Below are positions 1,251-9,651 of a stretch of DNA of 64,000 bases, one piece after another. The position numbers and the translations under genes are program-made. The stretch comes from Candidatus Bathyarchaeota archaeon (lineage in GTDB: Archaea > Thermoproteota > Bathyarchaeia > Bathyarchaeales > Bathycorpusculaceae), in the NCBI GenBank assembly GCA_963775465.1, contig CAVZIW010000001.1:288001-352000 (forward strand). Reading direction: 5' to 3'. How positions within the stretch are numbered: the first letter of the stretch is position 1; each line of letters opens with the position of its first letter. The notes beneath the pieces are model-generated. The model was not told the origin of the DNA. It was given only the letters and a program-made list of their open reading frames with translations, and ran no database searches.

Positions 1251-1505
1251 ATGACAGAGAAAAAAACAATACCAGAATGTATGGATCAAGAGGAATTGGT
1301 TTCAGAAAAGGTAGATGAACAAGGCAGGCGATGGGTAAAAAAATATGTTGGTGGGGGTGCTCATTTTGCGAACTGGTTAGAGCAATACATAGAAATCTAT
1401 GGAGAAAAAGATGTGGAGATAGAAGAGGTAGATACAAGTGGTTATAGTTGTTTTGAGATGGGTAAGGAAAAAATGTTTAGAATCTGGGTAAAAGAAAAGA
1501 AATAA
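1251..1505 (+). CDS. Hypothetical small acidic protein
   Basis: 84-aa ORF with natural globular composition (KKYVGGGAHFANWLEQY); no family recognised. Confidence 0.75.
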   Translation: MTEKKTIPECMDQEELVSEKVDEQGRRWVKKYVGGGAHFANWLEQYIEIYGEKDVEIEEVDTSGYSCFEMGKEKMFRIWVKEKK

Positions 1506-1588
1506 TTTCTAAGCGCTAATAGAAGACTGGTTTTCTGAAATATTCCAAGTCTGAAACATGACTTATATAATATTTCTAATAATATTTG

Positions 1589-1672
1589 ATTGGAGAAGGA
1601 CGAGGAGAAAGGAGAGTAACTCCATGCACCAAGGGATGGGAATCTTTCTATCTCTTGTCTCGCTTCTCCAAT
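1589..1672 (+). ncRNA. Candidate hairpin small RNA
   Basis: ATTGGAGAAG (1589-1598) pairs with CTTCTCCAAT (1663-1672); inner arms pair with G-U wobbles; TTATATAA box at ~1563-1570. Confidence 0.4.
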
Positions 1673-2224
1673 ATTCTAAAAAACTCAGTAGATGCCGTTA
1701 ACTCTGCTAATTTGAAAATTTTCTTAAGATCCAATTTTCACATGTTATTATTTGTTTAATGGAATGCTCCGCTCTTACTTTGTTTATCTAGGATTCATAA
1801 GGATTTTATAAGTTATTCATTATACTAAAAAAAGTAAGTTAATCATGAAGAACCAGAAAAAAAGAAATAAAGAAAGACGTCAAAGAATTCTATCTGAATT
1901 TCTCATCTGAGCCATTAGGTTTAAATTTCTTTATTTTGACAACACAACTCAAAATAATCTTGACCAAAAATGTTTTCTGATCCTACTTTATCGATAAAAT
2001 AATAGTGCTGTCAGCCTTGTTTCGGTTTTCTTTTGGGGGGTTAAAGGAAAGATTAGAAATTGACTTTTTACTAGTTGAGGGGGATAAAAGTTAAGATTAG
2101 AATAGCATTTGCAAGTATTTTTTAAAAAAGCAGAAATGGGTTGAGAAATTTCGCCTGGAAATTTCCCTAAACCCATGAAAAAAATATATTGCTATCTAGC
2201 AAATAATTCAAAGGCGTGTGAATT

Positions 2225-2719
2225 ATGAGTCCGAGAGCATCCAAGTTGTATTCGGTACTAATGATTGCTATATTTTTAATTCTTGTATTTCTGGTTACAG
2301 AAAGCAACCAAAACTTTGATGGCGTGCTAGCCAAGCCGTCATTGAGCCTAAGTTACTACAAGAATAATGGTTATGGGTTAGGCAACGATATTAATGGAAT
2401 TTGGACAATTACCGCTTTAGTTTCTCAAAACGTTTCTTACGTCAAATTCTACTTAGATAATCAGCTTCAGCAAAACGATTCATCCTCACCGTTTAGTTGG
2501 AATTTTAACACTGACAACTATACTTTGGGTTTACACACGATTAGTGTAACAGCCTATGATTCTTCGGGCGAAGCTGAAACCGTGTCGGTCCAACGTAACT
2601 TCGTAGGATTTCCATTAGAGCTAGTAATTGGAATAATCGGTCTTGTAGTCGCGATAATTGTAGTTCTTGTCCTTGTGGCAGTGTATCAAATAAGAAAAAA
2701 TAACAAGGAAAACAAATAG
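2225..2719 (+). CDS. Membrane-anchored Ig-like (Big_7-type) domain protein
   Basis: N-terminal hydrophobic segment, VKFYLDN...PFSWNFNT...GLHTISVTAYDSSG Ig motif, C-terminal TM plus basic tail. Confidence 0.85.
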   Translation: MSPRASKLYSVLMIAIFLILVFLVTESNQNFDGVLAKPSLSLSYYKNNGYGLGNDINGIWTITALVSQNVSYVKFYLDNQLQQNDSSSPFSWNFNTDNYTLGLHTISVTAYDSSGEAETVSVQRNFVGFPLELVIGIIGLVVAIIVVLVLVAVYQIRKNNKENK

Positions 2720-2807
2720 AGCATTGACCCTTAATAAAAAGCCCAATCGATGAAATTATATTTTCTAATATACAATAATCATGAAGGTAATAGTTCTCAA
2801 TATCTAT

Positions 2808-3638
2808 TTAACCGAAGAATGTCCTTAGCTGGGCTTGTTTAATCTTGGTTTTGTCCTTAACCTTGTGTTGGTTTGGTGATAGTAAGCCGAGCTTCTCAAG
2901 CAACAGCAAACAGTTTTCAGGAGCATATCCGTGATAGTGGTTGTTGAAATAGCCATAGACTTTTTTAACTTTTTTAGCTGTATCCTGGACTTTTGGTACC
3001 CAAGGCATCAATTCTTCTTCGCTGTATGAATAGTCAAACCATATTTCTTCTCCCCTGCCATGCCACCTAAAATATGCAAAATCTGTTGTTAATTGCACTT
3101 CTGGAGGCAAAAGCGGTTCATCGACAACCGTAAAGGCAACCTCATATTGCTTTAGAAGTTCAAATGTCTTGGTAGCGGGCATCAACCATGTCAAGTTTCT
3201 AAACTCAACCGCATAACGAAACATCGGGTCGAGCATTTGAAAGAATGCTTCAAGATTCTGAGGATTATAAGAGTATTTTGGTGGCAACTGAATCAATAAA
3301 CAGGCAAGTTTGCCTGCTAGCTGCAAGGGACGCATTAAGTCTAAGAAAACCTCTAAATCTGCCTTAACTTCTTTTTTTAGTCCAAGCATATTTTCATGGG
3401 TTATGGTTTTTGGCAGTTTAGCTGCAAACACAAAATCTGAAGGAGAATACTTTAGCCAACCCATGACTGCACTCTTTGATGGATTGCGGTAGAAAGTTGA
3501 GTCTATTTCAGCAGTTTTGAAGACTCTTGAATAAACTCTAAGCTTACTTTCCGAACTCTTCTTCTGGTAGAAAACACCTTCCCATTCCTTGTAGCTCCAA
3601 CCGCATGTGCCAAGAAAAATGTTGTTTTCTTTACTCAA
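2808..3638 (-). CDS. DUF72 (YecE-like) TIM-barrel protein with C-terminal PIP box
   Basis: GTCGWSY, EIDSTFYRNP, KLPKTITHE, LIQLPP, AVEFR, YFRWHGR, YFNNH motifs; ends QAQLRTFFG. Confidence 0.92.
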   Translation of the reverse strand: MSKENNIFLGTCGWSYKEWEGVFYQKKSSESKLRVYSRVFKTAEIDSTFYRNPSKSAVMGWLKYSPSDFVFAAKLPKTITHENMLGLKKEVKADLEVFLDLMRPLQLAGKLACLLIQLPPKYSYNPQNLEAFFQMLDPMFRYAVEFRNLTWLMPATKTFELLKQYEVAFTVVDEPLLPPEVQLTTDFAYFRWHGRGEEIWFDYSYSEEELMPWVPKVQDTAKKVKKVYGYFNNHYHGYAPENCLLLLEKLGLLSPNQHKVKDKTKIKQAQLRTFFG

Positions 3639-4549
3639 AAAACCGACCTCAACTCTTTCATAACCTCATCTAAGCTGGAGTACCTTTTGTCTGGTAGATT
3701 TGCAAGAACTTCTGAAATATGAACTCGCTTATCAGGCGTTAGGTCTATAACTTTCCAACCCTGTTTCGCCTTCAGCTCAGCTTTTGAAATTGGAAAAGTA
3801 ATATCTTCGGATAGGACAGCTTTAGCAGAATCAATCCCTGTATAAGCTGTTACTGGAAGAAAGTTCCCAGTTCCCTTATAGTGTTTGAAGCGTGCAGCAT
3901 CAGAGTTCATTCTCGCTCCATGATAAGATAGAATTACAGTCTTTGAATCTGTATCTTGGGCTTTTCGGTCAATCTCTGCAAGTTCATCATCGCTGAACTG
4001 GTAGATGTTATGTTGACCTTTCCCAAACAACCTTGAATAAGTAACATCCAAATCAAAACTTGGCTTCTGCTTTGAAAGATCAACACAATGAATTATACCA
4101 AAATCCTCCATTAGACCAACGACAGTTTGAGTTATTGGCGCCCGATACTCCCAAACAAGTCTCAACCCGTTTATGTTTAAAGAAGAAAAGAAATCCCGAG
4201 TTTCTTTTTCATTCTTCTGATTTATCAAATATGTGGCAGGTGTTTCTAAAACCAAATAGGGAGAATTAAGAATATCACAATATTGTCTCATTTGGTAAAA
4301 GATTTCGTAAGCCTGACTCGACGGCACAAAACCTATGTTATGGGTCAAGTCCTGGTGGCATCGAACAGAAAAAGTAAAATCGTTAGGCACTGTTTCTCTC
4401 CATCGCTTAACCGTTTGAAAAGACGGATATTGATAGAAAGTATAGTTAACTTCGACAAAGTTGAATAGTTCACTGTAGGCTTTCAGAGATGGTTTATTTG
4501 GAACTTTAAAGTAAGCCCAACCACCCGCGCCAATAAGAAAATCAGGCAA
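3635..4549 (-). CDS. Divergent DUF72 protein with extra C-terminal helical domain (DUF2795-like)
   Basis: IGAGGWAY, FVEVNYTFY, FSVRCHQDLTH; C-terminal FPISKAEL...LANLPDKRYSSLDEV; 4-bp overlap with the downstream DUF72 gene. Confidence 0.85.
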   Translation of the reverse strand: MPDFLIGAGGWAYFKVPNKPSLKAYSELFNFVEVNYTFYQYPSFQTVKRWRETVPNDFTFSVRCHQDLTHNIGFVPSSQAYEIFYQMRQYCDILNSPYLVLETPATYLINQKNEKETRDFFSSLNINGLRLVWEYRAPITQTVVGLMEDFGIIHCVDLSKQKPSFDLDVTYSRLFGKGQHNIYQFSDDELAEIDRKAQDTDSKTVILSYHGARMNSDAARFKHYKGTGNFLPVTAYTGIDSAKAVLSEDITFPISKAELKAKQGWKVIDLTPDKRVHISEVLANLPDKRYSSLDEVMKELRSVF

Positions 4550-7905: not shown

Positions 7906-8053
7906 ATTCTTCGCTATCCTCCACTAAGGGCAAACGTTTCAAATGTTCATTTTCCTCAAACTGACCTGTCTTTAAAGCCCAAAATACGAAGCCTATCGAT
8001 ACGACTGCCATCAGAATAGAACCTATAATGTAGATCAGTATATCTATATTCAA
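7895..8053 (-). CDS. ccoS: cbb3-type cytochrome oxidase assembly protein CcoS/FixS
   Basis: Manual translation (TTG start overlapping the upstream TGA): MNIDILIYIIGSILMAVVSIGFVFWALKTGQFEENEHLKRLPLVEDSEEYDS*; FxWAxKxGQF signature. Confidence 0.88.
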   Translation of the reverse strand: MNIDILIYIIGSILMAVVSIGFVFWALKTGQFEENEHLKRLPLVEDSEEYDS

Positions 8054-9651
8054 AATAATCTCCTCGTCAACATTGATATCGAAACTATTATTCCCATTTT
8101 CGCGAATTCAAGAGTTTTTAAGAGCTTTCGATACTTTTGATCCCAAAGCAATATACCTGCAAAAATAGCCGTTGCCAAAGCAGCAGCAGTACTGGGTACA
8201 AAGCCACTAATTGTTGATCCTTCCATCAAGTCTCTACCGTAAGAATCGCTGTATAGCGGAGCCCATTTAGCGTTATAGTCTTGAGGTGTACTGAAACTCT
8301 GCTCGTAGAATATCACCTGATAGATTTCCTGGTCATTGAGGGACCATTTCCACGGAGGCATGTTCGTGGTTTCAACGCCCTCCCTAACTTTCCATACCCA
8401 TCGTCCGTAATTGGGGAAGTCGGAACCAGACTCTGTGAAGTTCGCAGGTTCTGGTGAGATGTAGCCGCCAGTTGTTTTAATCGAAGCAGGACCATCACCT
8501 TGCCCCCCATCTCCATGACATTGTGCACAGTAAAGAGTGAAAATCGCTTTTCCTTGTTCAAAATCCTGCATTGTTCCTGTTATCGGTGGAGAGTTTAGGA
8601 CATTGTTAGCGAAATTATCTCCCTCTGCATCTGAAATGTCACCTGAAACAGTTCTCACAGAACCTAATACGAAACTCATTTCGTAAATCGCCACTAGACT
8701 AATCTCTGTTTCATTAAGTGACAAACCCCATGTTGGCATTGCCGTGCCTGGCACACCTTCAGTTACTCGCCAAATATGATAATAGTCTCCAGGAAACGTT
8801 GAGATACGCTCATGCAAGTTGGCTGGTTGCGTCACTACATGTCTTGCGTATGGACCTTGAGCGTTACCTGAGCAACCATGACAAGCTAAACAACGTTGAG
8901 TATAATTGGCTTTACCAATTTCAAATATAGTTGCCCATTGTGCTCCCAACGAAGTACTACCATTATAGACATCGTTTTCAGCATCATAACTCACAGCTAC
9001 TTGTTTCATCAAGGGCGCGAAAAGGTTTGAGGCATTTACGAAATTCTCTGGAACATCTGGATGGTAAGAGCTTCCTCCAGTGATTGATAGGTCTACTCCA
9101 AGATCTTTTGAACCCAGGTTCTGAATGTATGCTGTCAAAGCCTCAATCTCGTGATCACTAAGAAAACCAAAATTAGGCATTATCGATCCAGGACTTACAC
9201 TTCTTGGATCTCTATCATGTAAATGATGCCAAATGGTTGGTCTCATTCCGCCGATTTGGGCAAGATCAGGACCTGTTCTCTCAGTACCTAGAGCGTTTGG
9301 GCTATCATAATAGTAGTCTCCGGTTTGCGATACGTTTCCTATGCCCCAGTCGGAAGGTCTTACTTGTTGGGAGTGACAGTAGAAGCAGCCATAACTCATG
9401 AAGAGGCTTCTGCCTTCAGCTTCAAGAGGAGTATACTCGTGAGATCTGTCACTGGGTGGAACATCCAGCAAGAACATGTAAGGCGCAAGTACCACCATGC
9501 TCACCATAAGCAGCATGACTCCTAAACCGCCAGCGGCAATAGGAAAGAGGTTATGTTGATGAGCCTTTTTTTCAATGACTTTGATTTCTCTTTCTACTGC
9601 TCGCTCAAGCCTTTCCAGCTCTTCCTCTATTTTCTTTTCTAGCCTGCTCAT
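8050..9651 (-). CDS. ccoO: cbb3-type oxidase subunit II (CcoO) fused to two extra class I cytochrome c domains (triheme)
   Basis: GCFYCHSQQVRP, GTERTGPDLA and SIMP are CcoO hallmarks; further CLACH...AMPTW and CAQCH...NMPPW. Confidence 0.92.
   Translation of the reverse strand: MSRLEKKIEEELERLERAVEREIKVIEKKAHQHNLFPIAAGGLGVMLLMVSMVVLAPYMFLLDVPPSDRSHEYTPLEAEGRSLFMSYGCFYCHSQQVRPSDWGIGNVSQTGDYYYDSPNALGTERTGPDLAQIGGMRPTIWHHLHDRDPRSVSPGSIMPNFGFLSDHEIEALTAYIQNLGSKDLGVDLSITGGSSYHPDVPENFVNASNLFAPLMKQVAVSYDAENDVYNGSTSLGAQWATIFEIGKANYTQRCLACHGCSGNAQGPYARHVVTQPANLHERISTFPGDYYHIWRVTEGVPGTAMPTWGLSLNETEISLVAIYEMSFVLGSVRTVSGDISDAEGDNFANNVLNSPPITGTMQDFEQGKAIFTLYCAQCHGDGGQGDGPASIKTTGGYISPEPANFTESGSDFPNYGRWVWKVREGVETTNMPPWKWSLNDQEIYQVIFYEQSFSTPQDYNAKWAPLYSDSYGRDLMEGSTISGFVPSTAAALATAIFAGILLWDQKYRKLLKTLEFAKMGIIVSISMLTRRLF

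Follow-up and report, generated by a model that had tools for sequence, protein, structure and literature searches.

A 64,000-nt stretch of contig C1, from a 2.4-Mb Bathyarchaeia metagenome-assembled genome (MAG; 92% complete), hereafter called the window, contains two adjacent minus-strand genes whose products both belong to the DUF72 family. The public genomes nearest to this one are likewise MAGs and carry the labels Bathyarchaeia or Bathyarchaeota. The upstream gene, A (positions 3635–4549, stop codon included), starts with TTG; its 304-aa product is a diverged paralog of the DUF72 family and has a DUF5789 domain at the C-terminus. The downstream gene, B (2808–3638, stop codon included), also starts with TTG and encodes a 276-aa canonical DUF72 protein that ends in a PCNA-interacting protein (PIP) box. 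The start codon of B and the TGA stop codon of A overlap in the tetranucleotide TTGA (3635–3638, minus strand; tcaa in the letters of the plus strand). A first-pass annotation of this sequence had described a tandem, translationally coupled DUF72 pair, and this description was borne out, as the open reading frames (ORFs) lie as placed, overlap at TTGA, and both match Pfam DUF72. The interpretation that we favor, as the better supported though by no means certain one, is that B is a DNA-processing enzyme tethered to the sliding clamp.

Membership of both proteins in DUF72 (PF01904) is clear, with scores of 214 bits for B and 97.6 bits for A against a cut-off of 25.3. The TIM-barrel domain of B occupies residues 26–248 (2895–3563, minus strand) and contains the invariant polar residues of the family, and the corresponding region of A spans residues 16–207 (3929–4504, minus strand). 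Comparison of the two proteins with each other (BLASTP, 27% identity, E-value 4e-15; hhalign probability 99.7) indicated that they are paralogs. By sequence, B matches Protein Data Bank (PDB) entry 1vpq with an E-value of 2.5e-37. Its AlphaFold2 (AF2) model, with a mean predicted local distance difference test (pLDDT) score of 88.9, is a confident barrel, and Foldseek assigned it to the DUF72 TIM-barrel fold (1vpq, query TM-score [TMq] 0.79, E-value 1.3e-19; DUF72 structures in general, TMq 0.75–0.79). The AF2 model of A is a single compact unit including the C-terminal domain (pLDDT 95.5, predicted TM-score [pTM] 0.91), and its best Foldseek matches are 1vpq and 1vpy (TMq 0.60 and 0.58). The extra domain of about 70 residues that had been noticed at the C-terminus of A proved to be DUF5789 (about residues 246–303; 3641–3814, minus strand): the last 70 or so residues scored 26.3 bits when scanned alone and 21.9 bits within the whole protein (cut-off 21.7). 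A weak similarity of the same segment to DUF2795 (19.7 bits) lies under the cut-off of 25.

Multiple alignments revealed how the two paralogs differ at conserved positions. Across 65 orthologs of B, residues E44, K74, T80, H81, Q117, E145, R147, D173, E174, Y189, R191, H193, N232, N233, and H234 are invariant. In the A–B alignment, YSRLFGKG of A lies opposite YFRWHGRG of B, and LSYHGA of A lies opposite YFNNHYHGY of B. The histidine of the YxRxHG motif (H193 in B) is thus replaced by an invariant phenylalanine (F175) in A, and the FNNH residues N232/N233/H234 are replaced by S/F-x-H, in agreement with the earlier observation that A has RLFGKG and SYHG instead of R-x-HG and FNN-H. On the other hand, A retains E33, T69/H70, E134/R136, D157, and Y171/R173, the counterparts of E44, T80/H81, E145/R147, D173, and Y189/R191 in B. 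It also has 27 invariant columns of its own over 70 orthologs, including Y171, R173, F175, G176, G178, H210, M214, D217, and R220 (alignment A4, from which loci L023 and L062 were excluded because of internal stops in their A frames). The word "degenerate", which the first-pass annotation had used for A, was therefore half right: the His and the FNN have been lost, while most conserved polar residues are kept and the family has many invariant positions. By its pattern of conservation, A is a diverged, conserved paralog that is not decaying.

The C-terminus of B is KIKQAQLRTFFG (longer tail, ...NQHKVKDKTKIKQAQLRTFFG). Codon-by-codon reading placed an exact Q-x-x-L-x-x-F-F, QAQLRTFF, at residues 268–275 (2814–2837, minus strand), followed only by G276 and the TAA stop codon, just as had been annotated. 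This octapeptide fits the PIP pattern Q-x-x-(L/I/M)-x-x-(F/Y/W)-(F/Y/W). It follows a variable, Lys-rich linker (residues 254–267; 2838–2879, minus strand). The tail is predicted to be flexible: pLDDT falls to 69 in the second-to-last block of 10 residues and to 50 in the last, with a short helix at residues 271–275.

Conservation of the terminal motif in orthologs, the check on which the first-pass annotation had made its own proposal depend, came out in favor of the motif. Of the 120 nearest homologs of B (74–98% identity), 114 have retained the PIP box. For a broader view, we surveyed 109 loci from species-level genomes (80 and 29 from two samples), leaving out matches below 45% identity and ORFs that ran off the locus or contained X, and obtained 105 complete B ORFs. 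They comprise 50 short forms of 255–300 aa and 53 long forms of 370 aa or more; a strict PIP box within the last 14 residues was found in 34 of the 50 short forms. Among 170 distinct short-form sequences, 148 could be anchored on the motif. In these the Gln and the Leu are present in all 148, the first aromatic position is Phe in 139 and Tyr in 9, and the second is Phe in 136 and Leu in 12; the positions of the Lys-rich linker before the motif each accept 9–13 residue types. Such a pattern is that of a short linear motif under selection, carried on a variable tether.

The long-form B orthologs (around 390 aa) make up about half of the B orthologs and occur in deeper Bathyarchaeia lineages and in other families of the phylum. 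Directly after their barrel comes an internal [ST]xLExF-like motif, detected with a narrow pattern in 22 of 53 sequences (0.7 expected by shuffling), and then a Cys/His extension of about 120 aa with the signature HDCxDW...CKH. This extension is SWIM-like, but its assignment as a SWIM zinc finger was not supported by Pfam: of the two extensions scanned, one reached 12 bits (cut-off 19.6) with an E-value of 0.16, a hint below threshold, and the second gave nothing. On the evidence of these sequences, the C-terminal module of B is variable, and the PIP-ended short form is one of two architectures.

To place the tail of B among those of its own genome, we scanned the last 12 residues of all 2780 ORFs of at least 100 aa for Qxx[LIMV]xx[FYW][FYWL]. 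Only five ORFs had such a tail, compared with 2.1 ± 1.6 in shuffled tails. They are B, a Y-family polymerase with IMS domains (ending in NQRQLTTFFQST), Endonuclease Q (ending in EQKNMVDFF; E-value 2e-66 to PfuEndoQ), and two that look like chance matches. When a slightly longer piece of each tail was scanned, Nre was also found to have a PIP-type tail slightly further in (ending in QKRITDFFTSQTI). Judged by sequence type, the tail of B is one common to the recognized clamp clients of this organism. The genome has a single PCNA gene (251-aa ORF; PCNA_N, 68.4 bits), whose best PDB matches are archaeal PCNAs (E-value 3e-46); since the host encodes PCNA, a PIP box is meaningful in it. As a separate observation, a 149-aa protein without any Pfam match on contig C10 (53512–53961, minus strand) has a PIP-like end, ...SQVTMGNFLQKNQEK, and may be a small PCNA-binding protein.

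The association between A and B was then analyzed. In all 69 related loci that hold both genes, which come from the whole class and from some Asgard-labelled MAGs, A and B are adjacent. Fifty-three are arranged in tandem as A then B (gap of –10 to 200 nt), 4 overlap by 14–26 nt, 1 pair is spaced by 729 nt, and 11 have the two genes on opposite strands. The linkage of A and B therefore outlives inversion, which points to function over mere operon inheritance. From this conservation of context, A would work with B in a common pathway, probably as a non-equivalent partner subunit. Prediction of an A–B complex from alignments A3 and A4, run without controls, gave ipSAE values of 0.01 and 0.00 against a mark of 0.32, which by the rule of the method carries no weight in either direction.

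The same data bear on a different view of A, in which B would be a PCNA client via its PIP box and A a separate enzyme handling a substrate or step of its own in the pathway of B, the operon reflecting co-regulation only. Because most of its conserved polar residues are retained, A may be an active enzyme of different specificity and not a partner subunit, a point that tells against the partner role. The retained set, from E33 to Y171/R173, together with residues invariant in A itself (YSRLFGKG, H210, M214, D217, and R220), is what a working active site would look like; A alone folds confidently as a compact unit in its model; and the 11 loci with opposite strands imply that the two proteins are not always co-translated. 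However, adjacency in every locus with both genes speaks against independence, as does the absence from A of the His and the Asn-Asn that are invariant in B-type proteins. In addition, a DUF72 homodimer interface, assigned by PISA, is described for Tm1631 in PMC3828134. We regard an independent A as possible but unlikely, and prefer to see A and B as working together.

Several MAGs with bacterial labels (Limnocylindrales, Cytophagales, Acidiferrales, and Acidoferrum; L020, L031, L076, L077, G301, and G303) also contain Bathyarchaeia-like A/B pairs with 55–74% identity. Two of them, G301 and G303, contain the full A/B pair and the solo DUF72 set, so that mis-binning of contigs or mislabelling of the MAGs is suspected.

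Clamp-type tails are not confined to the B family. DUF72 is widespread, occurring in 259 of 301 genomes of the archaeal phylum sample and in 9 of 14 control organisms. For a tail census of the family, the best 150 representatives were taken at 50% identity. A strict PIP box forms the end of 12 and QxxLF that of 10, compared with 0.15 and 0.29, respectively, when the last 25 residues were shuffled (maximum 2 in each case). Among DUF72 tails whose organism is named, those of the PIP or PIP-like type are archaeal and come from Helarchaeota (GQRRLDRFFK), Methanofastidiosia (PQEKLERWF), Marsarchaeota (GQPSLDDYMRG), and Undinarchaeales (GQKTLTSFTGR). The named QxxLF tails are on bacterial DUF72 proteins from Latescibacterota (HQMSLF), Armatimonadota (AQPRLFE), and an entry labelled only as "bacterium" (VQGELFA). 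A sample was also taken of the bacterial phylum to which a genome labelled Cytophagales belongs; among its 29 best DUF72 loci, 7 have QLGLF, QLRLF, QMKLF, or QSALFE at the end. The Escherichia coli K-12 member of the family, YecE (b1868), ends in ...AIPQQSSLF, and Q[ST][STA]LF is present at the end of all 80 Enterobacteriaceae YecE orthologs examined (78–97% identity, E. coli K-12 among them), although the preceding 18 residues vary. The classical beta-clamp-binding motif is a C-terminal QL(S/D)LF-like pentapeptide. The bacterial DUF72 tails match this pentapeptide and are putative clamp-binding peptides. The tail type appears to switch with the domain of life, being of the PIP type in archaea and QxxLF in many bacteria.

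Another possibility for the B tail is that QxxLxxFF docks a partner other than PCNA, such as the DUF5789 domain of A, RPA, or a polymerase, and resembles a PIP box through convergence. PIP-like peptides are promiscuous, and the internal LExF motif and Cys/His domain of the long forms could mean a different interaction logic. The motif nevertheless matches the tails of the Y-family polymerase, Endonuclease Q, and Nre of the same genome. Moreover, bacterial homologs, which live without PCNA, have a beta-clamp pentapeptide in the equivalent place, a switch that the sliding clamp explains and the other partners do not. Docking to another partner therefore seems improbable to us, and PCNA is the preferred candidate.

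Taken further, these tails suggest that DUF72 may be a family of sliding-clamp clients in both prokaryotic domains, with archaeal members on PCNA and YecE types on the beta clamp; YecE would then be an unrecognized beta-clamp partner at replication or repair sites, and the A/B pair a heteromeric elaboration. We consider this generalization evenly balanced. What we regard as new is the presence of PIP-like tails on DUF72 proteins of other archaeal phyla and of QxxLF on many bacterial DUF72 proteins, YecE included. No link between DUF72, YecE, or COG1801 and a sliding clamp was found in the searchable papers, subscription journals and supplements being beyond reach. In that literature YecE is mentioned almost solely as an insertion site of Stx phages.

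The genome has five DUF72 matches, namely the A/B pair, a second pair (A'/B') on contig C6, and a solo paralog on contig C4. The A'/B' pair (C6:17671–21237, about positions 1400–3230 of that stretch) consists of decaying pseudogenes. B' has a TAA inside FNNH*HG, with the PIP tail KNKQAQLGSFFG still encoded beyond it, and A' contains an in-frame TGA as well as a frameshift in its N-terminal part. The solo DUF72 protein is 248 aa long, reads KYYSG at the FNNH position, and lacks a PIP box. Its gene follows, after 4 nt, that of a LigD-type ATP-dependent ligase with a fused 3'-phosphoesterase domain (C4:125506–129171, positions 1480–3649 of that stretch for the two together, minus strand), and it is located beside the full ligase or the phosphoesterase alone in all eight orthologous loci of at least 40% identity, that of its own genome included. 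A further association with DNA metabolism is given in PMC11791011, where DUF72 is reported as enriched near polB2 and its function is called unassigned. For Tm1631, PMC3828134 reports that conserved Tyr, His, Arg, Glu, and Arg residues form a sulfate site on the C-terminal barrel face, and it predicts Endonuclease IV-like chemistry.

A number of observations weigh against B as a clamp-tethered DNA-processing enzyme. A strict PIP box is lacking in 16 of the 50 short-form orthologs, most of which retain a weakened QxxLxxF (e.g., KQSQLGTFST, QQSRLSQFMH, and KNLTLDEF), and a strict C-terminal PIP box is present in none of the 53 long forms. Within one family of the phylum of the window (f12), the 14 tails comprise 8 of the QxxLxxF type (e.g., KKQKTLGSF), 3 QxxLF-like tails (e.g., DQVKLF), and 3 of neither type. 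Since both types are mixed in this family, the split between archaeal and bacterial tails is not clean. DUF72 is also patchy in the genus of the window, with a match (E-value ≤ 1e-10) in only two of six further genomes. The genome itself encodes three AP_endonuc_2 matches and UvdE, so that B fills no obvious gap. The idea that B is a non-orthologous displacement of Endonuclease IV or UVDE was ruled out on the same ground. No match to Exo_endo_phos was detected in this 92% complete genome. Neither A nor B has a Pfam match to AP_endonuc_2 or UvdE, which places both outside these nuclease families by that measure, and binding or activity data for any DUF72 protein were not found in the searchable papers.

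The fold, too, shows no preference for nucleases: in Foldseek searches with B, sugar epimerases, AP endonuclease family 2, and SacUVDE all have TMq values of 0.45–0.49, below the DUF72 structures. This last result is also what would be expected if DUF72 proteins belonged to the xylose-isomerase-like TIM-barrel superfamily as enzymes acting on small molecules (sugars or phosphoesters), had no DNA role, and carried incidental tails. D-psicose and tagatose epimerases rank as high as AP endonuclease and UVDE in these searches (TMq 0.45–0.50), and E. coli yecE lies among the unrelated genes yecD, yecN, and cmoA. Incidental tails are nevertheless hard to reconcile with their enrichment over shuffled sequences in the family census and with their retention in every Enterobacteriaceae ortholog examined. 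Both the constant neighborhood of the solo gene with LigD-type genes and the enrichment of DUF72 near polB2 (PMC11791011) likewise argue for a DNA role. We give a purely metabolic role very little credence.

On balance, we consider that B probably processes DNA while tethered to the clamp, and we infer PCNA binding, DNA as the substrate, the chemistry, and any A–B complex along the following lines. The PIP box of B would insert into the hydrophobic pocket of PCNA and dock the enzyme there. The Lys-rich linker of about 15 residues would let the barrel reach the DNA threaded through the PCNA ring, where the conserved face formed by Y-x-R-x-H, E-x-R, and N-N might grip a backbone phosphate and cleave or trim where the DNA has a lesion or a nick has a damaged end. 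For such processing, the likeliest chemistry would be phosphodiesterase-like, in the manner of Endonuclease IV or UVDE. A, which shares its transcript with B, would act with it, either as a second, non-equivalent subunit or in an adjacent step, and its DUF5789 domain possibly contributes DNA or lesion recognition.

The surroundings of the pair are consistent with a small transcriptional unit. Upstream of A is a 150-nt AT-rich spacer, followed by an unrelated gene for an 882-aa secreted protein, and downstream of B lies a convergent gene for a membrane Ig-domain protein. Because the flanking genes are unrelated or convergent, A and B form their own two-gene unit. When the 150 nt upstream of A were read for a promoter, only weak AT-rich TATA-like candidates were seen, and none is claimed. 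Elsewhere in the window (8050–9651, minus strand), a 533-aa protein combines FixO, the mono-haem subunit of cbb3-type oxidases, with two cytochrome c domains, which is unexpected in Bathyarchaeia.

DUF72 (COG1801, YecE) is a widespread family with solved structures and no function. The switch between clamp-type tails would place it on DNA at the sliding clamp and gives this domain of unknown function a testable role in both archaea and E. coli. If this is true, E. coli YecE would be an unrecognized beta-clamp partner that acts on DNA.

Comparison with known systems helps to define what is particular to the A/B pair. B resembles archaeal repair enzymes with a PIP box (Endonuclease Q, Nre, Y-family polymerase, and FEN1) in that Qxx(L/I/M)xxFF lies at the C-terminus, in a flexible tail. 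It differs from them in that its catalytic domain is a DUF72 barrel without assigned activity and that a diverged paralog is always encoded beside it. Within its own family, B shares the fold of TM1631 (1VPQ) and EF0366 (1VPY/1ZTV), and the YxRxHG and FNN motifs are common to the TM1631 alignment. These two proteins, however, are bacterial structural-genomics targets without assigned function, and the alignment with TM1631 stops 8 residues before the C-terminus of the latter. YecE is like B in combining DUF72 with a short clamp-type peptide at the extreme C-terminus, in its case after a variable Pro/Ala-rich stretch. In YecE, however, the peptide is the pentapeptide Q(S/T)SLF or QLGLF and not QxxLxxFF, FLHTPD replaces YFNNH in the last strand, and K-12 yecE has no annotated A-type partner gene alongside. 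The most remote comparison is with UVDE and Endonuclease IV, which are TIM barrels whose active site lies at the C-terminal face. An analogy between them and DUF72 proteins is proposed in PMC3828134 and PMC11791011, although their similarity to B is distant (TMq 0.46–0.49, 9–11% identity).

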